Positions 1 to 17,049 of a stretch of 64,000 bases of DNA are shown piece after piece (within the stretch, counting starts at the first letter, position 1; each line of letters begins with the position of its first letter). A program made the position numbers and the translations under genes. Under the pieces are notes generated by a model that saw nothing but the letters and a program-made list of their open reading frames with translations, ran no database searches and was not told the origin of the DNA. Origin of the DNA: Vulcanimicrobiota bacterium (lineage in GTDB: Bacteria; Vulcanimicrobiota; Vulcanimicrobiia; Eremiobacterales; Eremiobacteraceae); assembly GCA_963812135.1 (NCBI GenBank), contig CAWETU010000001.1:768001-832000 (forward strand), read 5' to 3'.

Positions 1-838
1 AACCGTTGAGCACGACCGCCCCGAGCGTGCCATGACCCGCCGGCGCGTTTTGTCCGACGCCGAATGGGTTGCCCGGGTCGTTGGGCACATACGGATCTTC
101 AAGACACTGCGCCCGAAAATCTTCGAGCGTCCAATACGACTCGGGAACGACGGCGACGGGATGCCGCGAATTGCACTCCTGCATCGAAATGGCGCTGCGC
201 GCGCAGACATCGCGCTCGAGCCGATTCGCGATGGTGAAGAGCAGGAACGAGGCGGGATTGTCGACGCTCGATCCCGTCGTAGTGCTGCCGGTCGCCGGCC
301 CCGAGCCTCCCTTGCTGCCGCCGCCGCCACCACCACCAGCGCTGGGTGGTTTGGACGACGATGAACCGCCGGAAGAACCGCCCGAAGGGCCGGCGCTGGG
401 GGCGCCGATCGACAAGAGCACGTAGAACGTCGGCTCCTGCGTCGCGATAAGCGGACGCTCCTGCGGCTGACGTCCGAGCACGCCTTCACAGAACTTCAAT
501 TGTTCCCACAGCGTACGCGGGTCGGTCTGACTTTGGCTCGGAGAGCAAGCGCTCCGAGCCACCGTTTGTCCGGCGAGTGCGGCGCATGCGTTCAGCCGGC
601 CGATGAGCAGCTGCGCTAAGTACGACTTGACGCCCAGGGGAATAGAATCAGCGGCTCGATAGTTCGGCGAGTCAAAATTGTACACCGCGATGACGTCGTA
701 GAGATCGCCGGTCGAGCAGATCGAGGAAGACAGCGAGGGCGCCGCGCTTTGCGCCACGGCGCCGTTCGGCACGGCCATGTTCAGCGCAATGGCGATGAGA
801 CTGCCTGCGGCGACAAAAGCGAAAGGCTTGCGGGTCAT
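1..838 (-). CDS. Secreted Cys-rich hypothetical protein with Gly/Ser linker (3' end runs off window)
   Basis: Not in the ORF track because no stop lies in the window. Manual translation from ATG 838: MTRKPFAFVAAGSLIAIALNMAVPNGAVAQ (signal peptide)...GGSSGGSSSSKPPSAGGGGGGSKGGSG...; GGAGG SD upstream; begins 20 nt after the patatin stop. Confidence 0.7.
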   Translation of the reverse strand, partial: MTRKPFAFVAAGSLIAIALNMAVPNGAVAQSAAPSLSSSICSTGDLYDVIAVYNFDSPNYRAADSIPLGVKSYLAQLLIGRLNACAALAGQTVARSACSPSQSQTDPRTLWEQLKFCEGVLGRQPQERPLIATQEPTFYVLLSIGAPSAGPSGGSSGGSSSSKPPSAGGGGGGGSKGGSGPATGSTTTGSSVDNPASFLLFTIANRLERDVCARSAISMQECNSRHPVAVVPESYWTLEDFRAQCLEDPYVPNDPGNPFGVGQNAPAGHGTLGAVVLNG

Positions 839-857
839 GAGACGTTGCCTCCCGAGG

Positions 858-2081
858 TTAGTCTCTCGATCGTTGCGCCGGCAAGAACCCTGCAAAGTCG
901 TCCGGCGAAACGTAAAGATCTGCCGCGGTCTTACCGACGAGCTGCAATTCGTCGAGGTGCGTAGCCTCAAACGGAGCAACCGCGCGCTCGTGGATGGCCT
1001 TCAACCCGAGGCGATCTAAACCTTGCCGCGACACATCGACGTTGTAGCGGACATACGTGAAGAGCTTGTCGGCGAGCGGCGCCCGGTTGTCCACGAGAGT
1101 TCCGATCTCGGAATCGAGCGCCTCGCCGTGGCGCGTCCTGCCAAAAACGCGGCACAGCATGTCCTGCTCGACCGCGGCAGCGGAGATCAGCGCGGAGGGC
1201 AAGGACTGCAGGTTGTAGAGCAGATTCATCTCATTTGCCCGCAGGCTCCGGTTGGCGCTCTCGCTCAGCCCGGTTCCCACGGAGACGAGCAACAAGTCCC
1301 GTTCGCCCGGCGGCCAGTGGACCTCATACGGCGGCAGTGTCGCCATGAGAAAGAGCAAGAAGGAAGGGTTGTTATAGACCGTCACGCCGCCGTCGATGAA
1401 AATGAATTGCTGGTCGCCCACATCGATGACCTCGGGCGGGAAGAATACCGGAGCAGCCGTGCTGGCGCGCACGAGTTGCCAGAGCGGTAGGTTCAGGTTG
1501 CAATCAGGCGATTCGAGACTGTTGAACTTCGCTCGCGGGTTGTTCGAGAGCGGCCACGGTGAATCGGTGGAGGCGTTGCGCATGACGATCAGCAGCAGGG
1601 TCCGCAGCTTGTCCGTTCCCAGTGTCGCCTCGCGCCCCGCGTCTTGGCCGATCACCGATTTTATCCGTGCCGCGAGAGCGTTGTGCGTGAACATCGACGA
1701 TGACGTCAAGATGCCCACCGTGCTCAAGAGTTTGGTGGCGGCCGAATCGGGACCGAACCGCCGCGCGGCGCGCAAAAACATGTTCGCAGGATCGAACATG
1801 TCATGGGCGGCGGTTCGAATGATTTCGCGGATCTGCGCTGCCGAGTATCCGAGGGAGACGAGCGTGGCGATGATCGCACCGGCGCTCGTGCCGGCGACGT
1901 AGTCGAAAAAATCCGCCAGGACGAGGCTGTCGCGGCCCGTCGCTTGCCGCAACAGCGTCTCCAAACGCAACAAGAACTCGACGGCGATCAATCCGCGAAT
2001 TCCACCGCCGTCTACCGAGAGAAGCCTCTTCGGACCAGGCGCGGTCAAACGCGCTTCCACCTGCGATGGCACGAACGCCAC
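858..2081 (-). CDS. Patatin-like phospholipase
   Basis: DGGGIRG oxyanion loop, GTSAG nucleophile elbow, RASTAAP motif, DGG catalytic Asp. Confidence 0.92.
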   Translation of the reverse strand: MAFVPSQVEARLTAPGPKRLLSVDGGGIRGLIAVEFLLRLETLLRQATGRDSLVLADFFDYVAGTSAGAIIATLVSLGYSAAQIREIIRTAAHDMFDPANMFLRAARRFGPDSAATKLLSTVGILTSSSMFTHNALAARIKSVIGQDAGREATLGTDKLRTLLLIVMRNASTDSPWPLSNNPRAKFNSLESPDCNLNLPLWQLVRASTAAPVFFPPEVIDVGDQQFIFIDGGVTVYNNPSFLLFLMATLPPYEVHWPPGERDLLLVSVGTGLSESANRSLRANEMNLLYNLQSLPSALISAAAVEQDMLCRVFGRTRHGEALDSEIGTLVDNRAPLADKLFTYVRYNVDVSRQGLDRLGLKAIHERAVAPFEATHLDELQLVGKTAADLYVSPDDFAGFLPAQRSRD

Positions 2082-2158
2082 GTTCGGTCATGCGGCGCTT
2101 CCCTCTTTCCAACCGGCGGGGTTCGGCGCGTTCGCTCCAGAACGCGGCCACTTTGACA

Positions 2159-3838
2159 GTGCTGCAATCGGAAGCCAAAACCACGAGGGCAGGATTCCAT
2201 GATCTGCCCTTGGTCGTCGGCGTGTCCGGGCATCGCGATCCACCGGCAGACGCCGAACCGCAGTTGCGCGAGCGCTTCGGCGAAGTTCTCGGCGGACTGG
2301 CGCATCGTTACCCGCAGATGCCCTTGCTCGTCCTTTCGGGTCTGGCTGCCGGCGCAGACATCATCGCGGCAGAAGAAGCGCTCGATCGCGGCGTCGCGGT
2401 GCTAGGCTGCCTGCCGATGCCCCAAGCGGAGTACGAAAAGGACTTCTCGCCGGAAGAGCTGCAGCGTTTTCGGCGCGTGCTGCCGCGCTGCTGGGACGTC
2501 ATCGTCGTCGGCACATCGGCCAACCGCGAGCAGAACTACGTCGATGTCGCGACGTTCATCGCCTACTATTGCCATGTGTTGGTCGCCTTTTGGGATGGCT
2601 TACCGGCGCGCGGACCCGGCGGAACCGCGGAGGTCGTCGAGCTGCGCAAAGGCGTCTTGCCGAGCGCGTTGGGCGAGACGCTGGTCGCATATCTGCCCGA
2701 CACCGGCCCGGTCTTTCAGATCGTCACGCCGCGCCGGGGACAGCCGCCGCCGCACGACAGCTTTGCCTTGCACGAGTTCTATCCGCAACGCGAGGCCCTA
2801 ACCGCACGCGATAAAGAACCCGGGACCTCGACCGGCCGGCGCGAGTTCGAAAGTGCACTGGCGCGGCTCGAGCGCTTCAATCGCGACTTAGGTACGCACG
2901 CGCCCGATGCAAAAGCGTTCACGCTGGCCGATTTTCGCGATCGCACGGACGCGGCCGCGAACAAGCTGCAAGTCGACACGTTGCGATCGGTCCAGAGCGT
3001 CTTCATAGCTACGGCGCTCGCCGCCGCCGCGCAATTGATCTTCCCGACTGACGGCTCATTCAATATTCCAAGCTGGCTCGGCATCGGCATACGCATAGGC
3101 TTTCTCATCATCGCCGTGCTCGTGCTGGCGATCGCGAAGCGCAGCGATTACGAAAATCGCTATCAAGACTACCGAGCCATCGCCGAGGCGCTTCGCGTGC
3201 AGTGCGCGTGGTGTTGCGCCGGCCTGGGCAACCGATTGGTCGAAGCGTCGTATTTGCAGATGCAGCAAAGCGAGCTGGAATGGATCCGGCTGGCGCTGCG
3301 AACGATGTACCTGATCACCGGGGCCGGCACTCCGTCGCCTGACGACTCCCCGACACATCCCGAGTGTCTACGCTGGATCGACAGCCAGATAGAGTATTAC
3401 GAGAGATCGGGGCGGCGCGAGGAACGGCAGATGCGATACGCGAGATGGGCGATGATCGCGCTACCCGTCGCAGGTGGCGTCGTCTCGGCCAGCGCGGGAG
3501 TCCTGGCCTTCATGGTCTCACACAAGGTGCTACTCGTACCGCCCGCGCAACTTGCCGACACGCTACGCGTCCTGACGTATTTGGGCACGATGCCGTTTGC
3601 GCTCGGCGGCATGCTCGCGCTGTGGATCCGCTTCTACGTCGAGCAGCGCGGATTCGCCGAGAACACGCGGCGCTACCACCACATGTACGCGGTCTTCAGC
3701 GCAGCCAAGCGGCGCCTTGTGGAACGGGCCCGCGATCCGCGCAAAGTGCTGGAAGAACTCGGCCATGAGTCGCTTTCCGAACACGCGGAGTGGCTGATCT
3801 TGCATCGCGAGCGGCCGCTGGAGTTCGTCCACACCTAA
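2159..3838 (+). CDS. SLOG-superfamily domain fused to two SLATT-like 2TM domains
   Basis: N-terminal VGVSGHRD...LSGLAAGAD...LVAFWDG...GPGGTAEVV (SLOG/YpsA-like). Two hydrophobic hairpins follow, with YQDYRAIAEALR and LGHESLSEHAEW (SLATT-like). Start uncertain (GTG 2159, TTG 2153; ORF open from 2066). Confidence 0.72.
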   Translation: MLQSEAKTTRAGFHDLPLVVGVSGHRDPPADAEPQLRERFGEVLGGLAHRYPQMPLLVLSGLAAGADIIAAEEALDRGVAVLGCLPMPQAEYEKDFSPEELQRFRRVLPRCWDVIVVGTSANREQNYVDVATFIAYYCHVLVAFWDGLPARGPGGTAEVVELRKGVLPSALGETLVAYLPDTGPVFQIVTPRRGQPPPHDSFALHEFYPQREALTARDKEPGTSTGRREFESALARLERFNRDLGTHAPDAKAFTLADFRDRTDAAANKLQVDTLRSVQSVFIATALAAAAQLIFPTDGSFNIPSWLGIGIRIGFLIIAVLVLAIAKRSDYENRYQDYRAIAEALRVQCAWCCAGLGNRLVEASYLQMQQSELEWIRLALRTMYLITGAGTPSPDDSPTHPECLRWIDSQIEYYERSGRREERQMRYARWAMIALPVAGGVVSASAGVLAFMVSHKVLLVPPAQLADTLRVLTYLGTMPFALGGMLALWIRFYVEQRGFAENTRRYHHMYAVFSAAKRRLVERARDPRKVLEELGHESLSEHAEWLILHRERPLEFVHT

Positions 3839-3950
3839 GCTCGCACCGCTTCGGTGGTTCGGCGACGGCCTTAGTCCCAGGACTCGCCCACGGGGTCATG
3901 GAAAAGGCCGCACTGAGGGCCCCTGCGTTTAGTTTATGACGTTTTAGTTT

Positions 3951-5471
3951 ATGCCTTTCCAGATCTTCGTTTCCTATGCGCGCAATGATGATTTGCCGCC
4001 GTTAGACGGCGAAGGCAAAGGCTTTGTCACGACCCTTCTCAAGCACCTCGAGTTCCATTTCACCTGCTTCGGCGAACCGACCCCGGTCGTGTGGCGCGAC
4101 AAGCGCGCGATCGCGCGCAGCGAACAGTTCGACCCTATCATCGAAAAGGGCATTCAGGAGTCGCAGCTGCTCCTCGTGGTGCTGTCCAACAACTGGATTC
4201 ACCGCGAGTTCTGCCGGCGCGAGCTCGATATGTTCGCGCAACGCTGGCACAAGGAAGGTGACGACGGCGTCAAGCGGCGGATCGTCGTCGTCGGCAAAAA
4301 TTACATCGAGCCTGCCGCGCGACCGCCGCTCTTGCAGGGGCAGGAAGGGTATTTATTCTACGCCCCGGACGACGAGAACCCGAGCCGCTATCGCGAGTTC
4401 TTCGTGCGCGGGAAGGCGCGTGAAGAATTCCACGAACACACGCAGGAACTCGCCGAGGACATCTGGCGACGCGCCTGCGAGCACGAACAAGTAGCTCCGC
4501 CCGCGTCCGGTCTCGCCGGCGCCGGCTGGGTGCCGGTGCAATCGAGCGGCAGAAAGATCTACCTGGCCAAGCCCGCCGCCGACATGCGCGCGGCATACAC
4601 CCGCCTCGTGGACGAATTGCGCCAGCGCGGATATGTGGTCGAGCCGTCGCCTGAAGCCGACATCCCCGCGGACAGCAGCGCGGCAGACTTCCTTCGCAGT
4701 TCGCTTGAAGGCACGGAGCTCTCGATCCATTTGCTGGGCGACAAGGCTGGTTGGGCGCCCGAAGACTGCGAGCCGATCGTGCCGCTGCAGTTGAAGCTGG
4801 CTGCCCAGGCGCAATCGCGCCGCATCATCTGGGCGCCGAAGATCCTCGTCGACGAACACGAGCACGCGCATGCTTCGAAGGCACGCGACCCGTTCGCCGT
4901 CCTCGACAAATTCGATCGCAAGCTCGACAACGACACGATCGACGGCAGTGAGACCAGCGCGTTCGCGCAGTTCGTCGTCCAGCATCTCGACAAGAACGCG
5001 CCGCCCGTGCCAGAAATCGAGTCGATCGACGCAAATGCCCGCGTGTATCTCTACCATCGGCCCGAAGATACGCAATACGCCGTCAAGATCGCAACGGTGC
5101 TCGCCGAACGCGGCATACAGCCGGTCTTCCCCGCGTTCGAAGGCGATCCGGCTGAGCTGGCCGCGCTCCACCGGCGGGAACTTGCCGAATGCGACGCGGT
5201 CGTGCTGTGTTGGGCCAACGCCGCCGAAGTGTGGGTCAAGAGCCAGGCGCGCGAACTCAAAAATTGGCGCGAGCTCGGCCGCGACCATGGTTTTGCGTGC
5301 CGGGGTTTGGTCGCCGGACCGCCTCCGGGTCAGCGCAAGGATCTCCTCGTGCAGTTGCCGCCGCGCAACGAAATCGACGTCGTGGTCGATCTGACCCAGT
5401 CGGAAGACTTGACGCCGGGGGCGCTCGACCCGCTCATCCGCGCCACCCAATCGCCGCAGGACGCCGCCTAG
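3951..5471 (+). CDS. Protein with three tandem TIR/TIR-like domains
   Basis: IFVSYARND...LLVVLSNNWIHREFCRREL (TIR with candidate catalytic Glu); second KIYLAKPAADM...SIHLLG (DUF4062-like); third RVYLYHRPED...CDAVVLCW. Confidence 0.82.
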   Translation: MPFQIFVSYARNDDLPPLDGEGKGFVTTLLKHLEFHFTCFGEPTPVVWRDKRAIARSEQFDPIIEKGIQESQLLLVVLSNNWIHREFCRRELDMFAQRWHKEGDDGVKRRIVVVGKNYIEPAARPPLLQGQEGYLFYAPDDENPSRYREFFVRGKAREEFHEHTQELAEDIWRRACEHEQVAPPASGLAGAGWVPVQSSGRKIYLAKPAADMRAAYTRLVDELRQRGYVVEPSPEADIPADSSAADFLRSSLEGTELSIHLLGDKAGWAPEDCEPIVPLQLKLAAQAQSRRIIWAPKILVDEHEHAHASKARDPFAVLDKFDRKLDNDTIDGSETSAFAQFVVQHLDKNAPPVPEIESIDANARVYLYHRPEDTQYAVKIATVLAERGIQPVFPAFEGDPAELAALHRRELAECDAVVLCWANAAEVWVKSQARELKNWRELGRDHGFACRGLVAGPPPGQRKDLLVQLPPRNEIDVVVDLTQSEDLTPGALDPLIRATQSPQDAA

Positions 5472-5474
5472 CAA

Positions 5475-8400
5475 ATGCGACCGTTTCCCGGACTACGGCC
5501 GTTTGATTTCGAAGACCGCGAGTTCTTTTTCGGCCGTGAGGACCAGATCTTTTCGCTGTACCGGCTGCTCGAGCACAGCCGGTTCATCGCAGTGGTCGGC
5601 AGCTCCGGCAGCGGGAAATCGTCGCTCGTGCGCGCCGGGCTGCTGCCGGTCATAGAAGAGGAAAGTCAAGGCGATGGCGGGCGCAAGTGGCGTTTCGCCA
5701 CCTTGCATCCAGGCGACGCGCCGGTCGCGGCCCTCGCTTCGGCGATCACGTCGCTGGCCCAAGGCGCCGATGAGCACGCAGAGATCAGGCACGAGCGCAC
5801 GCTCTTCGCGTTGCGCCGGTCGAGCTTCGGGCTGAGCAAGGCGGTCGACGACATCGGCGATCTGTCGGGCAAATCCGTATTGCTCGTCGTCGATCAATTC
5901 GAAGAACTGTTCCGTTACGCGACGAGCGCGACGCGCGACAGCCGCGGTAGCGCGCTCTGGCGCGACGAGGCAGCCAACTTCGTTCAATTGTTGCTCGAAG
6001 CGACGCGCAGCCGGTCGAGCTCGATCCACGTCCTCATCACCATGCGCTCGGACTTCATCGGTGATTGCGCGCAGTTCCACGGACTGCCCGAAGCGGTCAG
6101 CGCCGCGCAATTCCTCGTGCCGTCGCTCACGCGCGACCAACGGGAAGACGTCATCCGCAAACCAGTGGAGAAAGCCGGCGCAACGATCGATTCGACATTG
6201 GTCGAGATGCTGCTCAACGATGCCGGCAGCGAGACGGATCAATTACCAGTCCTGCAGCACCTCTTGTCGCGGTTATGGGATCGAGCGCAACCGGATGCCG
6301 CCGGCAACCGGCATCTCGGCCTGGACGAATATCGCGCCATCGGCAGCATCACCGGCGCGCTGTCGCAGCACGCCGATGAGGTCATGGCATCGTTGCCCGG
6401 ACTCGAGCTTGCGGTCGAGCAGACTTTTCGTGCGCTGAGCGAGGTCGATTCGGAAGGCCGCGCCACACGCCGCGCGCTGCCATATTCTCGTCTGCTTGCG
6501 GAAACGGGTGTACCTGAGGCCGACCTCGTGCGCGTGCTGGACCGCTTTCGCGCCGAAGACTGTTCGTTTATCTTGCCGCCGCCTGCCGCCGTGCCGGTGC
6601 TGCGCGGTGCCGCGCGCGTCGACGTCGTGCATGAGGCACTCTTACGCCGCTGGGAGCGGATCAGCGCCGACAAGCCGCACGTGCTCGACGGGCGGATGCA
6701 AACCGGGTGGCTAAACGCCGAGGCCGCCGACGGCAGATTCTACCGCGCGCTGCTGGCGTTATTGGAGACCGGCTCTGCCGCGACGGCGATGACGCTGCCG
6801 CTTGATCAAGTCGAAGCGCGTTGGGACTGGTGGATGTCGCGCCCGCGCACGGCGGCATGGGCCGAGCGCTATGGCGGCCGCCTTCCCAGCGTCGAGAAAC
6901 TTTTCCAGGATAGCCTTGCAGCGCTTGCGACCGAGCAAAAACGGGAAGAGGAAGCCGAACGCCGCGAACGCGAGCAAGAACGGCGCGAGATCGAAACGCA
7001 AGAAGCCGCAAAACGCGAGCGCCTCGAGCACCAAGCCGAGGTCGACCGCATGCGCGTGGAGTCGGCACAACGCCTCACGCAGCGCAGCCGCATCGCTGCC
7101 GCGGCGATGCTGGTCGTCGCGGTCCTCGCGATCGCATCGGCAGTCTTTGCCTTTCAAGAGAAAAGAGCAGCTGACGCGGGCGCACGGGCCGCGGACGCGC
7201 GGGCGGCGGCTGAAGCAGCACTGGCCACGGCACGGAAGCGAATGGCGGATTTGGGAACCGTGGCCCAAGTCGCGGCGAAGCACGCCCAGCATGAGGCGAA
7301 CGTCGCGCAGCATGAGGCGAACGTCGCCACCACCGCGCTCACCGCCGCGGAACAGCAGCGTCAGAACGCGATCGTTCAGCGAAATAATGCAAATAACCAG
7401 CGTACGATCGCGCAGGATCAGACCGCGCGAGCGCTTGCGGCGAGATCCCAAGTCTTCATGCAACGCGGTCGACAAGCATTGCTTGACGGCGACGACAACA
7501 GCGCGGCGCTCTTGCTTGCCGCCGCGTACCAAGGCGATTCATCGGATCCCGTCGTGCAATCGCTTCTGCGCCAAGCACTGGCCAAGCTGCAGATCCGGCC
7601 GACGTCCATCGACGCGCACAACAATGGATTCATCACCGCACTCGCGGTCGATCCGCATAGCCAGCGCGTTGCGACGGCGAGCACCGATGGATCGGTGAAG
7701 CTTTGGAGCGTCTCCGGCCGCCCGATCCAATCATTCCACGATCAAAACGACGTCATCACCGGGCTCGCCTTCGATCCATCCGGGAAGTACCTCGTCAGCG
7801 TCGGCCGTGACGGCACGGCGAAGCTGCACGATCTCGCCGGCCTGACCACCGGTTCGGATCCTCCCGCGATCGCATTGCTCGATGCGAAAGACAAACTCGA
7901 AGGGCACGTCGGGCGGATCAATTCAGTCGTTTTCAGTCACAACGGTGCGCGCATCTTGACATCGGGCAGCGACGGCATGGTCAAACTGTGGAATGCGGCC
8001 GACGGTAAGATGATCGCCGAATGGAGCGGTGCGTCGCCCGGCGTCGCGATCAACGACGCGATATTTAGCCGCGACGACCAGATCATCGCCGCGTGCGCCG
8101 CCGACGGGTCGGTCACGGTTTGGGACCTGACCGGCAAACAGATCAACTCGAAGACCGTCACCTCGAAGAGCCCGCTCGTGCATCTGGCGATCTCACCCAA
8201 CGGCCGGACGGTGGTCGCTGGTGCGCTCGACGGAGCGATCATCGCATTCGACTTTAACGCGCTCGCGTCGCACGAATCCAGCTATAGTCCGCCTGAGTGG
8301 CATTACCAGCATCAGGCGATCAACGCGCTTTCGTTCGACGCGACCGGCAAACGGGTGTTGAGCGGGAGCGCGGACGGCACAGTCGTTCTGCTCGACGCGG

Positions 8401-9818
8401 CGAGCGGCAGGCCGCAAGTGACGATCGCCCCCCGACCTGGTGCGCCCGCGGTCTTGACCGCCTCGTTCGATCCCGCCAGCAACGGGTTCGAGGCGACGTA
8501 CGCCGACGGCTCGCTCAATCTGTGGACGCAAGAAGGCGATCCGTTGGTGATGCTGCACGGACCCGTTGCAGTGGAAGCGCGATTCGTTCCCGACGGCAGC
8601 GCGCTTGTGACCGGAAGCGATCACGGCATCGTCGATCTGTGGCCCTTGCCGGTCACATTGAGCAAGCTTGCGGCTTCGCATCGCGCAGGCGTCGAATCGA
8701 TCGAGTTCGATCATGCCGGACACATGCTGACCGCCAGTCAAGACGGCACAGCCGCGCTGTGGCAAGCCGGGGAACAACCGCAACTCGAACGCGTTTTGCC
8801 GCACTCGCCGGGTTCGGCGTGGGTCGTCGCGGCGCGCTTCAGCAGGGACGGCAGCCGCATCGTCACGATCGGCGGCGCCACGGCGAAGATCTGGGACCTC
8901 CAGTCGGCGACCCCGCTGGCGACGATCCACACGACGGCGCAGAACAAACGTTTCATTCAAGCCGAATTCGTCGGGGGCAGCCACAACGTCATACTCGCGC
9001 AAACCGACATGGATCCGGCGACGCACGTGTACGAGACCAACGGCTGGAGGGTGTGGTCGAGCAACGGCCCGCGAGAGATCGCAAAGCAGCCCGGTTACCA
9101 ATCCGACATCCGGGAGCTGGTCCTGACGGATGACGGGAAGTACACGCTTTCAGTCAGTCAAGACGGCTACGCGTTCGTCTACGACACGAACGGACATTCG
9201 GATAACTATCAGACGTGGAAGGACGCCGCCGAGGCGATCGCCCTCGGAGACCGTTTCGTGCTTGGCGAGGCCAACGGAAACCTGCACATCATATATCCGA
9301 CTGACGCAGAGAGCCGCGGCGAGTGGTCGAGCAATGACGCGCGCGTTCTGACGCTCGCCCTATCGGCGGACCACAAGTGGCTCGTCTCTGGAGGCGCGGG
9401 CGGATCTCCGGGCGCGATCTGGGATCTCACGCAGCAACGGCATTCGCACGTTTCGCTCGGCGGCGGCGCCGGATCGATCGAATCGGCATCGTTCTCTCCC
9501 GGCGATGCGCGTTTTCTCACGGCGATTTTCTCCGACGGAACGGTGCGGTTGTGGGATCGCGAGTCGGGAAATGTCCTGGCGTCGGCGTCCGTGCCGGGCG
9601 CGCACGCAACCGCGGCGGCGTTCACACCGGACGGGTCGGCGATCATCATCGGCTCCGAGGACGGAGGCATGTATGTCTGGCGCATTCGCGGTGGCCTACC
9701 GAGCCCGAGCGACGCGGCTGCGCTTGCGCTGCGCGAGACGAACCATTCGGATATCTCCGATCCGCTGATGACCCAGGCCGTATTCACCTTGCAGCAGGCA
9801 GCGCCGCGTGCGAACTGA
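5475..9818 (+). CDS. nSTAND1 NTPase - coiled coil - TM - WD40 repeat protein (NLR-like)
   Basis: RPFPGLRPF...FFGRE, Walker A GSSGSGKSS, Walker B VVDQFEELF, ITMRSDF, LPVLQH, HEALLRRW; TM IAAAAMLVVAVLAIASAVFAF; many WD repeats (e.g. GHVGRINSVVFS...DGMVKLWN). Confidence 0.9.
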   Translation: MRPFPGLRPFDFEDREFFFGREDQIFSLYRLLEHSRFIAVVGSSGSGKSSLVRAGLLPVIEEESQGDGGRKWRFATLHPGDAPVAALASAITSLAQGADEHAEIRHERTLFALRRSSFGLSKAVDDIGDLSGKSVLLVVDQFEELFRYATSATRDSRGSALWRDEAANFVQLLLEATRSRSSSIHVLITMRSDFIGDCAQFHGLPEAVSAAQFLVPSLTRDQREDVIRKPVEKAGATIDSTLVEMLLNDAGSETDQLPVLQHLLSRLWDRAQPDAAGNRHLGLDEYRAIGSITGALSQHADEVMASLPGLELAVEQTFRALSEVDSEGRATRRALPYSRLLAETGVPEADLVRVLDRFRAEDCSFILPPPAAVPVLRGAARVDVVHEALLRRWERISADKPHVLDGRMQTGWLNAEAADGRFYRALLALLETGSAATAMTLPLDQVEARWDWWMSRPRTAAWAERYGGRLPSVEKLFQDSLAALATEQKREEEAERREREQERREIETQEAAKRERLEHQAEVDRMRVESAQRLTQRSRIAAAAMLVVAVLAIASAVFAFQEKRAADAGARAADARAAAEAALATARKRMADLGTVAQVAAKHAQHEANVAQHEANVATTALTAAEQQRQNAIVQRNNANNQRTIAQDQTARALAARSQVFMQRGRQALLDGDDNSAALLLAAAYQGDSSDPVVQSLLRQALAKLQIRPTSIDAHNNGFITALAVDPHSQRVATASTDGSVKLWSVSGRPIQSFHDQNDVITGLAFDPSGKYLVSVGRDGTAKLHDLAGLTTGSDPPAIALLDAKDKLEGHVGRINSVVFSHNGARILTSGSDGMVKLWNAADGKMIAEWSGASPGVAINDAIFSRDDQIIAACAADGSVTVWDLTGKQINSKTVTSKSPLVHLAISPNGRTVVAGALDGAIIAFDFNALASHESSYSPPEWHYQHQAINALSFDATGKRVLSGSADGTVVLLDAASGRPQVTIAPRPGAPAVLTASFDPASNGFEATYADGSLNLWTQEGDPLVMLHGPVAVEARFVPDGSALVTGSDHGIVDLWPLPVTLSKLAASHRAGVESIEFDHAGHMLTASQDGTAALWQAGEQPQLERVLPHSPGSAWVVAARFSRDGSRIVTIGGATAKIWDLQSATPLATIHTTAQNKRFIQAEFVGGSHNVILAQTDMDPATHVYETNGWRVWSSNGPREIAKQPGYQSDIRELVLTDDGKYTLSVSQDGYAFVYDTNGHSDNYQTWKDAAEAIALGDRFVLGEANGNLHIIYPTDAESRGEWSSNDARVLTLALSADHKWLVSGGAGGSPGAIWDLTQQRHSHVSLGGGAGSIESASFSPGDARFLTAIFSDGTVRLWDRESGNVLASASVPGAHATAAAFTPDGSAIIIGSEDGGMYVWRIRGGLPSPSDAAALALRETNHSDISDPLMTQAVFTLQQAAPRAN
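7287..7328 (+). repeat. 21-bp tandem duplication (QHEANVA x2) in the coiled coil of the STAND gene
   Basis: CAGCATGAGGCGAACGTCGCG followed by CAGCATGAGGCGAACGTCGCC. Confidence 0.9.
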
Positions 9819-11520
9819 GCGCTTCGGGCGAACCTTTGCCCTGCTTGCCGGCGTCGCGCTCGTATCGTGTTTGATCTGCGCACCGGTGCGAGCGTCGAGC
9901 GTACCCTTTGTGTTCACCAATGGCAATCTGCTCATTGATTTCAGCGATCTTACCACGCGCGGCGGACTCCGCATGGGGGCCTATCGCACCTATAACTCGT
10001 GGAACACCAACCTCATGGGCAGATACGGCGACGGTTGGGAAACGTCATCCGAGAGCTATCTCGTCGTTCAGGCGGACGGCTCGATCGTCGTGCACGAATT
10101 CGGCGGCGGCGCCAACAATTCGTTTACGCCGACGTCACTCGGCCGCCGCAATGCGACGGATATACTCGACGAGATCATGCGCGCCGCGCAGACGACGGGA
10201 CACTTCGGCAGCGATGCGGACCGCGCCGCGTACGAACACTGGCTCCAGAGCGACGGCAACGAAGAGGACCAGTGGCAGCATTATGTCGACCTCGGCTTGA
10301 TAAAACGGCCCGATCCCCCGGTCGGTCAGACGTTCTTCAGCAGTCAGTTCTACACCGAATACTTGACGCGGGTACCCGAAGGGTACCAACGGGAACGCCG
10401 ATTTCCAGGCAGCGTGTATTTCCAGGCCTTCAACGAGATGGGCAAGATGACCCGATGGTGGGATGCCAACGGCGATTTCATCGCGATCGACTTGACAAAG
10501 GACGGCAACTACGCGCAAGCGTCCGACAATTGGGGCGATCGATTTACGTTTTCGACGACCACCGCCGGACTCGTCACCGGCATCAGCGACTCGCAACACA
10601 TCGTGCGCTATCACTACCAAGCGGCCGCTAAGCCCTACACCGGCTCCGACCTCATGTCCGTGGACATCGACGGCAAGGTGACGCGTTATGGTTACGACGC
10701 GAAAAACCGGCTGATCGCGATTTGGTATGCCGACAACACCGCCATGCACATCACATATGATGATCTCGGGCGAGCGGCGAGCGTCAACGATGCGGACGGT
10801 ACCGTGACAAGCTATCGTTACACCATGTGCGCCACGCCGGCGTCAACCCAATGCACGTTTGAAAAAGACACGCACGCTCCCAACGGTCAGACCCACAGCG
10901 ACGTGACCGCGTTCTCGTATGACGCGGGTGGGCACAAAGAGAAAGACGTCGAGACATACGACGGCGCAGTCATCAAGACGACGGCGTATGACGGTAAGGG
11001 TCTCATCGCGTCGGTGACGACGCCGCAGGGAACGACCGAATTTGGGCGCGATTACCTTAATCGCGTGAACTTCGCACGCGTGCCGAGCGGAACGACGTAC
11101 GCGTGGCAGTACGATCCGGCGAGTCGCAGCGTCTCAATCCTCACGCGCACGACGAAAGACGGCGTCGTGGTGGAGCATTTTCAATACGATCCAAAATTCA
11201 ATCTCGTCCGGGCGTACGACAGTGCCGGCCATGACTTCTCAATCGACCACGATGCACACGGGCGTGTCGCGTCGGTCAGCGGCGGCGAGATCAGTTTGAA
11301 CTTCACCTTCTCGGATGCGCGCGCAACCAGTCCGGACAGCGTCGCGCTCGACGGGGTAGGCTCGGTGAGTCTTTCCTATGACGCCAACGGCGCCGTCGCC
11401 AAGGCGCAAAGCGCGGGCGGCGTTGAGGTCGTCGCGAAAGTCAGGGCCGTGCTGAAATCTGTTGACGACCTTATCGGGGATGCTTCTTTCCATGTGGTCA
11501 CGCTGCCCGCCGGCACATAG
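9808..11520 (+). CDS. Secreted RHS/YD-repeat protein (DUF6531-like N-terminus), no C-terminal toxin
   Basis: Signal peptide; NGNL...RTYNS...YGDGW; repeated YD motifs (YGYDAKNRL, TYDDLGR, YDAGG, YDGKG); overlaps the STAND stop by 11 nt. Confidence 0.8.
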   Translation: MRTERFGRTFALLAGVALVSCLICAPVRASSVPFVFTNGNLLIDFSDLTTRGGLRMGAYRTYNSWNTNLMGRYGDGWETSSESYLVVQADGSIVVHEFGGGANNSFTPTSLGRRNATDILDEIMRAAQTTGHFGSDADRAAYEHWLQSDGNEEDQWQHYVDLGLIKRPDPPVGQTFFSSQFYTEYLTRVPEGYQRERRFPGSVYFQAFNEMGKMTRWWDANGDFIAIDLTKDGNYAQASDNWGDRFTFSTTTAGLVTGISDSQHIVRYHYQAAAKPYTGSDLMSVDIDGKVTRYGYDAKNRLIAIWYADNTAMHITYDDLGRAASVNDADGTVTSYRYTMCATPASTQCTFEKDTHAPNGQTHSDVTAFSYDAGGHKEKDVETYDGAVIKTTAYDGKGLIASVTTPQGTTEFGRDYLNRVNFARVPSGTTYAWQYDPASRSVSILTRTTKDGVVVEHFQYDPKFNLVRAYDSAGHDFSIDHDAHGRVASVSGGEISLNFTFSDARATSPDSVALDGVGSVSLSYDANGAVAKAQSAGGVEVVAKVRAVLKSVDDLIGDASFHVVTLPAGT

Positions 11521-12821: not shown

Positions 12822-14093
12822 CTAGCGGACTAAGCGGAACTTCGCATAGACGTACGGATAATTGGGCCGGAACCAGTTGCGCAGGCTCCGCCGGATGAGC
12901 TCGCGCGCGGTCACCGCCGAGGCGCCCTTCATCACGAAGTGCTCGCCGTCGAAGAAGTCGGCCGAGTAGCCCGGATACGACTGCATGCGCTCGAAGCCGG
13001 GCAGCGGTCCGAACACGGTCGACGTCCACTCCCAGCCGTTGCCGACAAGATCCTCGACGCCCCACGCGCTCGCGCCCGCCGGGTGAGAACCTGCGTCGAC
13101 CGGATCGAAGCGATCGAAACCGAAGTTGCCGTGCTCCGATGACGGCGCCGCATCGCCCCAGGGTTGGCTGCGTTCGGATCCATCGGGAGTCCCATACGCC
13201 GCGCGATGGAACTCAGGCTCGGTCATCAGCCGCGCGCCGCGCCACGCCGCGTACTTGCTCGCCTGCTCTTGCGAGACATAGACGGGCCACGCGGGCGGAA
13301 GCGGCAGTTCTTCGAACATCGCGACCTGCATCCAGCGCCCATCGCGTTTGACCCAGAACGCCGGCGCTTCGCCGCCGCCTTGCTCGACGAACTCGAGCCA
13401 GTCCGCATTGGTGACGCTGTGCTTGTCGATCTCAAATGCCGGCACGTCGACTTCGAGCGTACGAAACTCGTTATCCCAACCGAACTCGACGTTTTCGGGC
13501 GACGCGCCCAGCGTCGCACGGCCTGCGGGCACGCGTATGCGAGCCTTTTCCGGCGGCGCTCCTCCGGCGACGGGTCTGACGCTGCCCGCGGGTGCGCGCT
13601 TTTCCGCCAACGGCACGCGATGCAACATGTACAGCAGCGTCTCGTGATGCATCGGTTCGTGTTCCAAGATGGTGTAGATCGCTTCTTTGACGCGCGGCGT
13701 GACCGAACGCGGGTCGGCGTCCGCCTTGCGCAAGATCTCACGCACCGCGGCATCCCACTTGGCTGCCATCGCCTGCACCTCAGCACGCGACGGCCACTGC
13801 TGCGGCGCGCTTTTTTGTGCAGCGTCGGCACTGCTAGGATCGATGCCGCGATAGAACAGCCGCTCCAAGCCCTCGTCGATGGCCGCGACGCCGACCGCAT
13901 CTTTGGCGAGCGTGATGAAACTGAACGCGGGGATGTGCCCCTCGTAGAACCGGACCGGGTGGCGCAGTGGGATCGGTCGCGAGTCGTACGCCTCGGGCGT
14001 GACCATGTCGAACAGCGACGCCGAGCGGCGCCGGTTCTCATCATACCACTGTGTGAAACTCGACCGGCCGGTGGTCGCGAGCGTGACGGCCAT
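12822..14093 (-). CDS. SUMF1/EgtB/OvoA-family non-heme iron sulfoxide synthase (DinB-like + FGE-sulfatase domains)
   Basis: LRHPVRFYEGH and EHEPMHHE iron ligands; FGWDNE, LVGNGWEWT, RNWFRPNYPY; ATG 14093 with GGAG SD. Confidence 0.85.
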   Translation of the reverse strand: MAVTLATTGRSSFTQWYDENRRRSASLFDMVTPEAYDSRPIPLRHPVRFYEGHIPAFSFITLAKDAVGVAAIDEGLERLFYRGIDPSSADAAQKSAPQQWPSRAEVQAMAAKWDAAVREILRKADADPRSVTPRVKEAIYTILEHEPMHHETLLYMLHRVPLAEKRAPAGSVRPVAGGAPPEKARIRVPAGRATLGASPENVEFGWDNEFRTLEVDVPAFEIDKHSVTNADWLEFVEQGGGEAPAFWVKRDGRWMQVAMFEELPLPPAWPVYVSQEQASKYAAWRGARLMTEPEFHRAAYGTPDGSERSQPWGDAAPSSEHGNFGFDRFDPVDAGSHPAGASAWGVEDLVGNGWEWTSTVFGPLPGFERMQSYPGYSADFFDGEHFVMKGASAVTARELIRRSLRNWFRPNYPYVYAKFRLVR

Positions 14094-14193
14094 GGGAACT
14101 CTCCAATCTTGACCCGCTTGATACAAGAAACGGCTTGCGGGCACGGGTACGTTTACCCTCCACTTCGCGGGCCTACGCGCGGTCCGTACTATA

Positions 14194-14895
14194 CTACTGG
14201 ATAGAGGCGACCAAGAACGGTTTCGTCGTCGGCGCCTGCGAGCCGCCGTCAGGTTCAACCGTCACCGCGACCGTCAGTCCTTTTTCTGCGCCCACCGGCA
14301 GCACGACGCTCGCGTCGCCGTTCGCGTCCGGTTTGAACGTCGGCGCCGGCGTGGGTTTTGCGCCCGCTCTGATGTACCACGCTTGATAGACCTTGCCCGA
14401 CGGCGCCGGTTGGAAACCGTGCGCTTCGAGTCGCAGTGTGCCTCCCGCAGCGACGACGCGTCCGCTGATCCCGCATGGCTCGACCGAAGTGCATGCGACG
14501 GCCCAGCTGCGCGCGCCGAACTTGCCCGATTCGATCGCCCACGTCGTCGCGAAGACGATCAGCACCACCGCCGCCGCGGCGGCGAGCCAACCGGGTTGTC
14601 TCCAAAACGCCGGCCGCATGGGGATGACGCGAGGCGCTGGTTGCGATGTGGACGACGTTTGGGGCGCGGGCTTCGTCTTCGCGATCGCCAGCACGCGCTC
14701 GCGCAGACCGGGTGGCGGCGGCTCGGCAACGCTGGCGGCCAATGCGAATGCGGCGAGGCGGCCGCGCATGAGCGCTTCTCGGCAACCTGGATCTTTGAGA
14801 TATGCTTCGACCGCGGCTCGCTCTTCCGGCTCGAGCCCGCCCAGCGCATAAAGTTCGGCGAGCTCGCGCATGGCCTGGTCGCGCTCGTCCATCAT
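14194..14895 (-). CDS. Anti-sigma factor, RskA family
   Basis: ELYALGGL...PPPGLRERVL, TM WLAAAAAVV, YQAW, AVTVEPDGGS..PT; ATGA overlap with the sigma gene. Confidence 0.88.
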   Translation of the reverse strand: MMDERDQAMRELAELYALGGLEPEERAAVEAYLKDPGCREALMRGRLAAFALAASVAEPPPPGLRERVLAIAKTKPAPQTSSTSQPAPRVIPMRPAFWRQPGWLAAAAAVVLIVFATTWAIESGKFGARSWAVACTSVEPCGISGRVVAAGGTLRLEAHGFQPAPSGKVYQAWYIRAGAKPTPAPTFKPDANGDASVVLPVGAEKGLTVAVTVEPDGGSQAPTTKPFLVASIQ

Positions 14896-15428
14896 GTCGT
14901 TTGTACCTCGCCGAGCGCGTCCATCAGACGTCGCAGGCCCGCGCGGATGCGGCTCTTGATCGTGCCGAGCGGCGCGCCGAGCTTCTCCGCGACCTCGCGA
15001 TAGGAGAGCCCGTCGAAAAACGCACGCTCGATCGCCTCGCGCTGATCGGGCGGCAACGTGCGCAGCGCGTCGCCGACCGCGGCCGCCCGCACGCGTTCGA
15101 ACACTTCATCATCGATATCGGTCAGCGCCGGCAAGTCGGTGGGCATCTCAGGTTCACGCGTGCGCACCGCCGCGCTCCGCAAGACGTCGATCGACGCATT
15201 GCGCGCCACGGTCGCCACCCACGCGGCGAAATTGCCGCCTTGGAACGACGCCGGCCGCGACCAGATCTGTAAGAACACGGATTGGGCGACGTCTTCAGCT
15301 TGCGTCGCATTGCCCAGCATCCGCCGCGCGACGCCGAAGACGAGCGCCGCGTGACGATCGTACAGCTGCGCGAAGGCGTCTGCATCGCCGCGGCGCACAC
15401 GCTCGATCAGCGCAGCATCGTCACCCAT
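14892..15428 (-). CDS. ECF sigma-70 factor (SigK-like)
   Basis: AFAQLYDRH, AEDVAQSVF, VARNASIDVLR, LGTIKSRIRAGL; alternative start ATG 15536. Confidence 0.92.
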   Translation of the reverse strand: MGDDAALIERVRRGDADAFAQLYDRHAALVFGVARRMLGNATQAEDVAQSVFLQIWSRPASFQGGNFAAWVATVARNASIDVLRSAAVRTREPEMPTDLPALTDIDDEVFERVRAAAVGDALRTLPPDQREAIERAFFDGLSYREVAEKLGAPLGTIKSRIRAGLRRLMDALGEVQTT

Positions 15429-15548
15429 GTAGCCGCGCGGTTCGCGCGCGAAAGACGCATCGCCTGGTGTGCCCGACGCTGCTGGCCACCAGATTCCAAG
15501 CAGCATCCTACGATGCGCGACTCCGATCGTGCACATAACTATAAGAAG

Positions 15549-15616
15549 AACGGCTCCCGCGCTCCCGCGGATTGATGCCGGGCGAATCGCTCATCCGAGG
15601 TTCATCGTGGTTCGTT
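15549..15616. promoter_or_regulatory. Back-to-back ECF-type promoters ATCC-N16-CGTT
   Basis: Minus strand: CAATCC(15574-15569)-N16-CGTT(15552-15549). Plus strand: TCATCC(15591-15596)-N16-CGTT(15613-15616). Confidence 0.6.
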
Positions 15617-15652
15617 AGGCGAGTGCACCCTTCTCGTCTAGGAGGCTATTTG

Positions 15653-16447
15653 ATGAACCGCAAGATGTTGCCCATAGCGGGCGGAGTCGCGTTTGCCGCA
15701 TTGGCGGGCGCGCTCTTCTTGTACACCGCGCATCCGGTGCGCGGCTCCGATCACCAAGACTCGCCCACCATGATCGCGCGACCGGGCGCGGACATCACCG
15801 ACGTGTTCGTGTTCCCGCCACCGACCGGCGGCGCAGAACAGAACAACAACGTCGTGCTGGTGATGAACGTGAACCCGCTGATCCCGATGGGGCAATCCGG
15901 CAGCTTCGCATTCGACCCCGCGGTCTTGTATCAATTCAAGATCGCGCTCGGCAGCGACACGGCCGAAGACCTCGTCATCCAGTTCAAGGCCAACGCATCT
16001 GGAACCGCGCAGACGCTGACGATGTACGGACCGGCGAAGCCGAACGTCGCCGGCACAACGTCCATGCTCGTCGCGTCCACGGGATCATTCGGCTTCAACA
16101 CGCCGGCGACGCTCACGCTCAACGGCAAACAGATCCAGGTCTTCGCCGGACCGCGCGAGGACCCGTTCTTCTTCGACCTCGCGCGCTTCTTCATGATCAT
16201 CCCGGATCGCAACTACCAGAACCAGCCGAATCCGCCGCCGGCGACCGCGTCGTCGTTCCGCGGCTTCCCGAACGCGGGCAACACGACGACCTGCGACCAC
16301 ACCGCCTCGCAAGATTTCTTGTCGAGCAATGGTTTCAACGTCCTGTCATTGGTCGTCGAGCTGCCGCGCACGCTGCTCGCGCCCACGTCCGGCGTTCCCG
16401 GCGTCATCAAGGTGTGGGCGACCAGCAGCACCACGTCAGGCTCATAG
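15653..16447 (+). CDS. DUF4331 family secreted protein (N-terminal type)
   Basis: Signal peptide, SDHQDSP, ADITDVFVF, FAGPREDPFFFDL; GGAGG SD. Confidence 0.85.
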   Translation: MNRKMLPIAGGVAFAALAGALFLYTAHPVRGSDHQDSPTMIARPGADITDVFVFPPPTGGAEQNNNVVLVMNVNPLIPMGQSGSFAFDPAVLYQFKIALGSDTAEDLVIQFKANASGTAQTLTMYGPAKPNVAGTTSMLVASTGSFGFNTPATLTLNGKQIQVFAGPREDPFFFDLARFFMIIPDRNYQNQPNPPPATASSFRGFPNAGNTTTCDHTASQDFLSSNGFNVLSLVVELPRTLLAPTSGVPGVIKVWATSSTTSGS

Positions 16448-16461
16448 GAGGTTTGAAACAC

Positions 16462-17049
16462 ATGCGCATCATCACTCTGTTCGGGCTCGGTGCCGTCGTG
16501 ATCGCCTCCGTGGCGGCCGCAGCGTGTTCGAGCAGCTCGACAAGCACCAATCCCACCACGCAATCATATACGCAGATCGAACGCCTCGCCCGTCCGGCCG
16601 TCAAAGAAGCGTTTGAGGCGTACCAACGCCACGATCAGACGAACAGAAGCTCGCCGTTCGCCGATCCGATCTTGCCGGGCGACATCACGGCGTTCATGAC
16701 GGGACCGAGCAGCGTCGCGAATCGGTCGGCCGGGACCGCCACCGCGCTGGTCGGCGTGCTCATTCCCGACGTCATGATCTCCGATCTGTCGCAGTCGGGC
16801 GTCGGCGCCGCATATCTCGGCGTTGAGACCGGCGGCGCCACCGGCAGCAAGTTCGGCGGCCGCGGATTGCATGACGACGTCATCGCCACCGACTTGAGCG
16901 CGATCTTCGGAAACACGCTCTCGGCGCTCGGCCTCGTGGCCGACGATGGCGCGGAATCGCCGTGCCTTGCGAACGACAACGTGCCGTATGGCAGCAGCGG
17001 CGGCAAACACGACACTACGACATTCCCCTACGTCGGGGCTCCACGTTAG
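16462..17049 (+). CDS. DUF4331 family lipoprotein (C-terminal type)
   Basis: Lipobox AAAC, YTQIERLARPAV, GGRGLHDDVI, FPYVG; AGGAGG SD. Confidence 0.8.
   Translation: MRIITLFGLGAVVIASVAAAACSSSSTSTNPTTQSYTQIERLARPAVKEAFEAYQRHDQTNRSSPFADPILPGDITAFMTGPSSVANRSAGTATALVGVLIPDVMISDLSQSGVGAAYLGVETGGATGSKFGGRGLHDDVIATDLSAIFGNTLSALGLVADDGAESPCLANDNVPYGSSGGKHDTTTFPYVGAPR

Follow-up and report, generated by a model that had tools for sequence, protein, structure and literature searches.

Gene content of the locus

A stretch of 64 000 nucleotides (nt) from the genome of a soil bacterium of the phylum Vulcanimicrobiota (assembly GCA_963812135.1, contig CAWETU010000001.1; G000:C1:768001-832000 in our own numbering) was analyzed and is termed the window here. 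An original prediction, made from the letters of the sequence, had described six closely spaced genes, arranged as two divergent units, at its left end, forming a candidate nucleotide-signaling conflict system. Open reading frame (ORF) calling confirmed this layout as an island of ~12 kb (window -472..11520), with the first gene running past the start of the window.

The unit on the minus strand encodes a secreted protein without a known family, termed SEC (-472..~840, of which 1..840 lies in the window), recognized as an ORF with a hydrophobic N-terminal segment, and a CapV-like patatin phospholipase that is predicted to be cytoplasmic (858..2081; Pfam Patatin and PADLOC matches). The SEC gene starts 18 nt 3' of the patatin gene and belongs to the same operon. 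The unit on the plus strand encodes, in order, a SLOG-SLATT protein (2159..3838, with an alternative ATG at 2066; Pfam DUF4231 and model fold), a TIR protein of 506 amino acids (aa) termed TIRx3 (3951..5471; Pfam TIR_2, 1.5e-15), a 1447-aa STAND protein with an nSTAND1 domain, a transmembrane (TM) helix and a WD40 region (5475..9818; Pfam nSTAND1, hydropathy and WD40), and a secreted short YD/RHS-repeat protein of 570 aa (9808..11520; RHS_repeat 2e-20, DUF6531 and a signal segment). The gap between the SLOG-SLATT and TIRx3 genes is 112 nt, the STAND gene starts 3 nt past the TIRx3 stop, and the YD/RHS gene begins within the last 11 nt of the STAND gene. Signal segments were found on both SEC and the YD/RHS protein, in agreement with the two secreted partners of the original prediction, and its domain calls for the patatin, SLOG-SLATT and nSTAND1-TM-WD40 proteins were matched by Pfam, PADLOC and model folds.

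One catalytic-type TIR domain and two divergent domains in TIRx3

The structural model of TIRx3 (predicted local distance difference test, pLDDT, 83.9; predicted template modeling score, pTM, 0.40) comprised three domains, the ranges of which were set by VIA-align; Foldseek run on the whole protein gave mixed matches of low TM-score. The first domain, D1 (aa 1-176; 3951..4478, plus strand), scored above the Pfam cut-offs for both TIR_2 (34-58 bits, cut-off 28) and TIR (27-31 bits, cut-off 21.3), and its fold aligned to the TIR domains of MyD88, RPP1 and SARM1 with Z values of 13.3-11.8 (MyD88, Z 13.3, root-mean-square deviation (rmsd) 3.5 over 134 aligned residues; SARM1, Z 11.8). Residue Glu91 sits in a C-x-x-E-L motif, was invariant in 29 sequences and was retained in 54 of 56 family members. 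It lines up with the motif WCxxEL of the RPV1 and TLR2 TIR domains and with WPQKEL of bacterial PdTIR (3h16), in each case at the Glu, a position that we take to be that of the catalytic Glu of TIR NADases. On these matches D1 is a catalytic-type TIR domain, and cleavage of NAD+ is predicted.

The second domain, D2 (aa ~199-351; 4545..5003, plus strand; VIA-align), adopted a flavodoxin-type fold in the model, nearest to MilB (Z 11.6), RCL (11.2), ThsB (10.7) and a nucleoside 2-deoxyribosyltransferase (NDT), the whole range being 10.5-11.6. It gave no Pfam match and showed no conserved catalytic Glu among the 56 family members, and its conserved residues were H260, Q280 and W294. The third domain, D3 (aa ~362-500; 5034..5471, plus strand), was divergent and TIR/NDT-like by a sub-threshold TIR_2 match and by VIA-align. 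It reached 21.9 bits against the 28-bit TIR_2 cut-off, while the counterpart domain of the homologue P0273 passed at 31.3 bits. Its fold aligned to deoxyribosyltransferase with a Z of 10.7, CheY-like receivers scoring about equally (~10), and the acidic residue E435 was retained in only 34 of the 56 family members. Profile comparison of D1, D2 and D3 with one another revealed no significant similarity (hhalign probability <1%). Given this lack of inter-domain similarity and the weak acidic conservation, TIRx3 is better described as one TIR domain followed by two TIR/NDT-like domains of flavodoxin-type fold than as the triple TIR first proposed, a label that holds clearly for D1. By the same sequence comparisons, D2 and D3 are probably inactive, non-catalytic TIR/NDT-like domains.

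The best NCBIfam match of TIRx3 was FxsC_Nterm, at 25.6 bits and so far under the 130-bit cut-off, and the PADLOC ThsB model matched with an E-value of 0.0075 at best. Searches with the D2-D3 module returned 131 clusters (50% identity) at E<=1e-30 and 538 at <=1e-10. The layout TIR-D2-D3 was seen in most, and a few carried helix-turn-helix (HTH) or ParA-like N-termini. In P0242, P0332 and P0308 the N-terminus is an XRE-type HTH or is ParA-like (AAA_31), in place of the first TIR or in addition to it, and these variants tie the family to the TIR-ParA systems of a recent preprint (bioRxiv 10.64898/2026.10.19.760177).

A STAND protein predicted to span the membrane

The nSTAND1 nucleoside triphosphatase (NTPase) domain of the STAND protein (5475..6665, plus strand) is predicted to be cytoplasmic and matched PF20703 over aa 3-397 with 293.5 bits (4.9e-87; cut-off 27.1 bits). 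Walker A (GSSGSGKS, G42-S50) and Walker B (DQFEE, D140-E144) were invariant across 29 sequences. A single TM helix follows at aa 540-558 (7092..7148, plus strand; hydropathy 2.72), predicted to run N-in/C-out, and beyond it lies a WD40 beta-propeller region that is predicted to be extracytoplasmic (7602..9818, plus strand; Pfam WD40, 1.9e-60). WD40 and many other propeller models matched aa ~710-1391. While the original prediction had recognized the STAND and WD40 domains, which were borne out, the predicted type-II membrane topology with an outer sensor had been missed.

A counterpart TM helix after the NTPase was located in 55 family STAND ORFs. Lys and Arg residues flanking it were more numerous on the N-terminal side in 51 of these 55, tied in 4 and reversed in none (mean 4.9 versus 2.2), so that by the positive-inside rule an N-in/C-out orientation is predicted. 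Six STAND ORFs of at least 650 aa had no helix in the scanned range, three of them being fragmented gene calls with the helix elsewhere. The STAND protein is accordingly predicted, from hydropathy and residue counts, to be a type-II single-pass membrane protein with its sensor domain outside the cytoplasm, and such a placement would change the range of what it can sense. To our knowledge, the known bacterial NLR-like (nucleotide-binding, leucine-rich repeat) and TIR defenses sense invaders within the cytoplasm.

The domains that follow the TM helix differ between family members. Pfam was run on 42 of 51 ectodomains, six close relatives and three truncated ones being excluded, and identified WD40 in 15 and TPR in 15; the remainder comprised one FGE-sulfatase, one VHL-beta, one bPH, one weak match to another family and eight that were Pfam-blank. 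Neither an EAD nor a Death-like adaptor was detected.

The YD/RHS protein encoded next to the STAND gene carries an N-terminal signal segment, DUF6531 and RHS/YD repeats. The RHS assignment of the original prediction held for the repeats and the signal segment. The protein itself is a 570-aa repeat fragment in which Pfam identified no toxin domain, and the Rhs matches in PDB span only about aa 250-475. Note also that it scored 40.7 bits against the NCBIfam RHS_core model (cut-off 2000) and is not a full YD shell. A YD/RHS gene was found directly 3' only of WD40-type STAND genes related to that of the window, at 14 loci including the window itself. The YD/RHS protein is translationally coupled to the STAND protein and is presumed to work with its ectodomain.

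TIRx3 and nSTAND1 form a conserved core

A TIRx3 profile search of species-representative genomes yielded 73 loci, referred to as core loci. By record titles, these derive from metagenome-assembled genomes or isolates of Eremiobacterota/Vulcanimicrobiota, Alpha-, Beta- and Gammaproteobacteria, Acidobacteriota, Planctomycetota and Chloroflexota, and the family is widespread among soil bacteria. In 69 of the 73 an nSTAND1 gene lies directly 3' of TIRx3 on the same strand, with an estimated gap of 24 nt at the median and 358 at the maximum; the four misses were three contig ends and one TIR-domain match from outside the family. Co-occurrence of homologues in other genomes, on which the original prediction had staked itself, is thus the rule for this pair.

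A complex between nSTAND1 (residues 1-490) and TIRx3 was modeled using custom alignments and scored 0.38, the best of three controls scoring 0.00, which gives weak support to the pairing. For comparison, 116 of 157 solved complexes and 2 of 215 mismatches attained this mark; at scores <=0.60 only 18 of the 157 did so, along with both mismatches. The separate runs shared at least 56% of contacts, with a partner pLDDT of at least 79.

Other conflict-type genes were observed beside the core at L042:8340-9995, L053:6099-7013, L033:17247-19294, L067:196-2301, L014:16565-19474, L015:2050-3093 and L062:14346-15614. They comprise SLATT-only, RES, TIR plus SLOG (LD_cluster2/3), CHAT-TPR, DUF900 hydrolase and trypsin-TIR genes, and this variety of neighbors suggests effector swapping around a constant core. 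A second nSTAND1 protein of 1559 aa, with ~210 extra N-terminal residues, is encoded at L017:14555-19231 (minus strand), convergent to the TIRx3-STAND pair.

The SLOG-SLATT and patatin module

The protein at 2159-3838 had been proposed to combine SLOG and SLATT domains, and this was upheld. It matched DUF4231, which we take to be a member of the SLATT clan, with 27.7-30 bits (Pfam cut-off 24.7), and its matches to SLATT_1, SLATT_3, DprA and YAcAr were all sub-threshold. SLOG and SLATT were reportedly defined by Burroughs et al. in 2015 (NAR). The AlphaFold model, built from an alignment of 30 sequences, was of good quality (pLDDT 87.2, pTM 0.84) and contained a SLOG domain of YpsA/DprA type at aa ~16-205 of the 559-aa form. 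VIA-align superposed this domain on YpsA with a Z of 17.4 (rmsd 2.9, 162 aligned), followed by ShosA (13.5), DprA (13.1), LOG proteins (9-10) and the SLOG domain of ThsA (7.0). Gly-rich SLOG motifs were conserved (GxxGHR, GLAAGAD and PGGT), and the C-terminal half was made up of long helices with two strong hydrophobic segments and SLATT-type TM hairpins.

The patatin matched Pfam Patatin (5.8e-24) and the PADLOC phospholipase effector model (9.4e-33), and the GTSAG and DGG motifs were present in its translation. SEC is 436 aa long from its likely Met and gave no family or fold match in Pfam, NCBIfam, PDB sequences or the ESM Atlas. A resemblance to FAM155A (best E-value among PDB sequences 0.0012) was confined to a low-complexity stretch and was rejected.

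A reverse search of metagenome contigs, starting from SLOG-SLATT, recovered 80 loci. The patatin gene lay directly 3' on the same strand at 17 of these, divergently upstream (as in the window) at 11, upstream on the same strand at 3 and nearby at 6. It was present at 19 of the 34 loci that are flanked by 1.3 kb or more on either side. SEC homologues adjoin patatin or SLOG-SLATT in related loci, SEC-like genes being found at ~17 of the 80, and at one locus SEC lies directly 3' of a STAND gene, in the slot that RHS holds in the window. An apparent 1016-aa fusion of SLOG-SLATT with patatin in L134/L135 proved to be an artefact of ORF picking, with two genes present.

Linkage between the two modules was examined from both sides. 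Patatin and/or SLOG-SLATT were found near the core at 14 of the 73 core loci, in at least five arrangements, and other SLATT or SLOG genes were found at four further ones (L042, L053, L033 and L067); in the L016 genome SLOG-SLATT lies ~10 kb off, just past the flank examined. Conversely, 20 SLOG-SLATT loci with at least 5 kb on each side formed a long-flank set, and a custom hidden Markov model detected a TIR-domain ORF at 13 of them. Eight of these were TIRx3 and five were other TIR proteins, three of which have the Pfam architectures TIR-NB-ARC-TPR, CHASE2-TIR and TIR-only. A further three loci contained TIRx3 or STAND by tblastn, giving a total of 16/20. Recurrent linkage of a SLOG effector to TIR proteins of unrelated architecture is to be expected of the receiver of a TIR-made signal. 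The original prediction of a single joint system stands as regards this linkage, and it does not stand as regards a fixed six-gene unit: the system is modular, with two conserved modules, and the core occurs alone in most loci.

Proteins of ~450-565 aa with MAP3K_TRAF_bd and TPR-S domains were also seen to recur beside SLOG-SLATT and TIRx3-STAND genes (L090:11865-13286, L103:8409-10103, L110:1265-2809, L121:9583-10944, L128:6466-7947, L148:6588-7976 and L043:8577-9983), and the window has none. A role as an additional sensor or adaptor for the SLOG-SLATT cassette is possible.

Mobility, divergence and possible expression of the island

Housekeeping genes border the island: a ketoacyl synthase gene lies upstream of it, and downstream of it lie CreD-like and EgtB-like genes. 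The genes at both borders abut or overlap island genes. In two genomes of the same genus the ketoacyl-synthase and EgtB genes lie ~400 bp apart, and in a third the distance between the synthase and CreD is 60 bp. From the flank spacing in these three genomes, which lack the island, it follows that exactly these six genes constitute the insertion or deletion. TIRx3 was detected in 36 of the 301 genomes sampled from the phylum, with G000 and the unpublished G182 counted among them. None of the five other genomes of the genus had it, but it was detected in 3/3 genomes of each of two sister genera. A tblastn search of the island's own genome revealed no second copy of any of its genes.

Identities to the window were taken from five close relatives. 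The TIR protein was 80-82% identical and the N-terminal part of the STAND protein 79-83%, followed by the patatin (70-78%) and SLOG-SLATT (65-67%). Lower values were obtained for SEC (54-66%), the STAND ectodomain (51-59%) and the YD/RHS protein (41-55%, in four of the five, the gene lying outside the flank examined at L079). The fastest-diverging parts are thus the predicted extracytoplasmic ones, the slowest being TIRx3 and the NTPase part, both taken to be cytoplasmic. It could be that this outer divergence reflects an interface with a changing ligand, or else looser constraint.

Two soil RNA libraries, one with 97-100% and one with ~93-95% identity to the window, yielded contigs that cover parts of the patatin, SLOG, TIR, STAND and RHS genes, and one contig spans the STAND/RHS junction. 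Since carry-over of DNA is possible, these contigs are a hint of expression only; equally, bins of the island without cover do not indicate silence.

The locus might also be explained by chance juxtaposition, or by gene decay with no function in common. The grouping of the genes exceeds chance, as shown by one shared insertion or deletion and by joint recurrence in related loci. In addition, the ORFs are intact with conserved catalytic motifs, genes overlap or lie 3 nt apart, the gene order of the core is strictly conserved (69/73), and RNA-library contigs cover the genes. An explanation by chance or decay is therefore considered highly improbable.

A proposed model with a membrane receptor at its center

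We lean, if only slightly, towards reading the island as a modular NLR-like TIR conflict system built around a membrane receptor, probably with an antiphage or abortive function. This reading builds on what was observed, namely the identities of the domains, the topology signal, the linkage of the genes and the mobility of the island, and to these it adds steps of activation and signaling, all of which we infer. An extracytoplasmic cue, such as phage adsorption or injection, a breach of the envelope or attack by a competitor, would be bound by the STAND ectodomain, possibly together with the YD protein. Binding would lead to NTP-dependent oligomerization of nSTAND1 at the membrane, and the oligomer would cluster TIRx3 through D2/D3 and so switch on the TIR active site. 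Activated TIRx3 would then cleave NAD+, and the SLOG domain of the SLATT pore protein would sense a product derived from ADP-ribose (ADPR), as probably would the CapV-like patatin, the pore and the lipase together destroying the membrane. At loci without SLOG-SLATT or patatin, loss of NAD+ might be the sole output.

A more far-reaching version can be put forward only tentatively. In this version the island would be a surface innate-immune receptor pathway, a hybrid of Toll-like receptor and NLR in its logic, in which a membrane-threaded NLR-type STAND protein with a WD40/TPR ectodomain and YD/SEC co-receptors detects an attacker before or during entry and a TIR-made messenger opens a SLATT pore and engages a CapV-like lipase. 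If it is true that a conserved, outward-sensing STAND protein is tied to a TIR protein, bacteria would run outside-in immune or death signaling. Such a system would join STAND sensing, TIR signaling of the Thoeris type and SLATT/patatin killing of the CBASS type, which have so far been studied apart. The two-gene core would offer a compact system for asking by what route oligomers of a STAND protein switch on a TIR protein that is encoded separately, and would also allow the role of the extra TIR-like domains and the ADPR-type ligand of a YpsA-type SLOG domain to be addressed.

A number of results weigh against a membrane-centered, jointly acting system. The outward placement of the WD40/TPR domains is a prediction from hydropathy and the charge rule, and D1, D2 and D3 share no profile similarity. 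The SLOG domain is nearest to YpsA/DprA (Z 17.4) and not to the SLOG domain of ThsA (Z 7.0). Against NCBIfam CBASS_lipase the patatin scored 92.2 bits (3.5e-26), under the 200-bit equivalog cut-off, and it contained no recognized sensor domain. No system model of PADLOC (2023) fitted the island, and no NCBIfam equivalog matched it. The remainder of the window is housekeeping sequence with no defense-island context. Lastly, the two modules are often apart: ~54 of the 73 core loci had no SLOG, SLATT or patatin gene within the flanks examined, SLOG-SLATT was absent genome-wide from three alphaproteobacterial genomes carrying the core, and the effectors are therefore dispensable for the core. At L004, an 80%-identical relative in which TIR-STAND-RHS is kept, patatin, SLOG-SLATT and SEC were all missing from ~10 kb upstream of TIR and ~1.5 kb downstream of STAND, and 4 of the 20 long-flank SLOG-SLATT loci were without a detectable TIR.

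The separate occurrence of the modules would be accounted for if two independent systems lay side by side, namely TIRx3-nSTAND1(-RHS), depleting NAD+ as effectors of the Avs, bNACHT and SPARTA type do, and a SLOG-SLATT-patatin(-SEC) cassette with a trigger of its own, the shared island being a product of conflict-gene clustering. The solitary cores, the genomes with a core and no SLOG-SLATT, the L004 locus and the cassettes without TIR all speak for such a division, and the recurring MAP3K_TRAF_bd/TPR-S neighbors could be the cassette's own sensor. However, no enzyme that would make a signal is encoded in the cassette itself, SLOG-SLATT adjoins TIR proteins of at least four architectures in the linked long-flank loci, the modules occur together in at least five arrangements across distant lineages, and in the genus the six genes were gained or lost as a single block. 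Two independent systems are on these grounds rather unlikely, although they must be taken seriously.

Another possibility is that the joint system serves surface signaling or programmed death and not defense against phage. It would then respond to envelope damage, to kin or non-self recognition or to contact-dependent attack, and the secreted YD and SEC proteins would be ligands, baits or co-receptors; in part this overlaps with immunity. Such a role would suit a sensor predicted to lie outside the cytoplasm, two secreted and fast-evolving partners, YD/RHS repeats, which are typical in interbacterial conflict, and the ordinary surroundings of the island in the window, and the available part of the October 2026 preprint describes related in-silico systems as enriched in multicellular bacteria (bioRxiv 10.64898/2026.10.19.760177). 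It fits less well with the patchy, mobile distribution, with TIR, SLATT and CapV-like parts that make up the usual abortive antiphage kit, or with the DndB, RES, CHAT and transposase genes near some relatives, and a periplasmic sensor could equally detect phage injection. A non-phage role is accordingly judged improbable, and a conflict system with a membrane receptor remains the favored reading.

Relationship to known systems

The original prediction had not recognized the full combination as a named system. This held in so far as no PADLOC system model matched; similar logic is nevertheless described, in the available parts of the preprints concerned, for Thoeris types III and VII and for TIR-ParA. 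A literature search found no description of a membrane-spanning nSTAND1 protein paired with TIRx3, and the supplementary tables of two preprints may list the family.

For Thoeris, the comparison draws on the available part of a survey of December 2025 (bioRxiv 10.64898/2025.12.03.692087), in which type III combines several TIR proteins with a SLOG effector, type VII combines a TIR protein with a SLATT effector and a cyclic ADPR signal, phospholipases are among the predicted effectors, and TIR domains within Avs proteins are dropped. The island resembles these systems in having a TIR protein with a catalytic-type Glu next to SLOG/SLATT effectors, and in the presumed opening of a membrane effector by a TIR-made, ADPR-derived signal. 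It differs in the strict pairing of its TIR protein with a STAND protein predicted to span the membrane, the candidate sensor, whereas the TIR proteins of Thoeris sense phage themselves, and that part of the survey makes no mention of a membrane STAND partner. In the island, moreover, the TIR protein carries two extra TIR/NDT-like domains, a SLOG domain of YpsA/DprA type is fused to SLATT, the ThsB model matched only at the E-value of 0.0075 given above, and no PADLOC Thoeris system model fitted.

A further close parallel is provided by the 'receptor-like' TIR-ParA (FxsC/FxsT-type) and PCTM systems described in silico in a preprint of October 2026 (bioRxiv 10.64898/2026.10.19.760177), again as far as its available part goes. 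There, and by prediction in the island too, an upstream gene encodes an active TIR domain with one or more inactive ones, and the downstream NTPase belongs to a type-II protein that crosses the membrane once and bears a variable sensor outside; in both, SLATT is an associated effector and periplasmic sensing of invasion is proposed. The likeness extends to FxsC_Nterm as the best NCBIfam match of TIRx3 and to P0308, which joins a ParA-like domain to D2-D3. In contrast, the NTPase of the island is nSTAND1, with no ParA/AAA_31 domain in the Pfam scan, the FxsC_Nterm score is 25.6 against 130 bits, and the probably inactive TIR-like domains lie on the TIR protein and not on the NTPase. The sensors enumerated in that part of the preprint, which is likewise purely computational, include neither WD40/TPR ectodomains nor a YD-repeat partner. 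The system is thus partly anticipated by comparative genomics, and nSTAND1 in place of ParA sets it apart.

The nSTAND1 domain is known from surveys of conflict systems (PMC8195603; PMC10907252, both as partly available). With Avs/AVAST and bNACHT, as described in the parts of the literature available, the island shares a STAND NTPase, a C-terminal repeat sensor, a TIR effector, nSTAND1 membership and a patchy spread. It differs from them in that the effector is a separate gene and not an N-terminal fusion, nSTAND1 beginning at aa 3, in the TM helix between the NTPase and the outward sensor, and in giving no PADLOC Avs match (E<=0.01). The likeness to CBASS lies in a CapV-like patatin and a SLATT (Cap15-like) membrane domain as killing effectors. 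However, neither the island's six proteins nor the genes on its flanks showed a CD-NTase domain, the patatin falls under the CapV equivalog cut-off, and the signal is presumed to be made by TIR and not to be a cyclic oligonucleotide.

Genes beyond the island

An EgtB-like gene with DinB_2 and FGE-sulfatase domains lies just beyond the island (window 12822-14258, minus strand). In the available part of PMC8195603, FGE domains are described as sensors in other nSTAND1 systems. This gene is placed outside the system because it is kept beside the insertion site in same-genus genomes. An ECF-type (extracytoplasmic function) sigma factor and an RskA-like anti-sigma factor are encoded as a pair 2.7 kb downstream of the island (window 14197-15536, minus strand). 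Next to these, DUF4331 is spread across two overlapping ORFs on the plus strand (window 15572-17046), the first of which (15572-16444) covers model positions 1-87 and the second (16414-17046) model positions 232-421; the split could stem from a frameshift or an error in sequencing, or the ORFs could be two genes.

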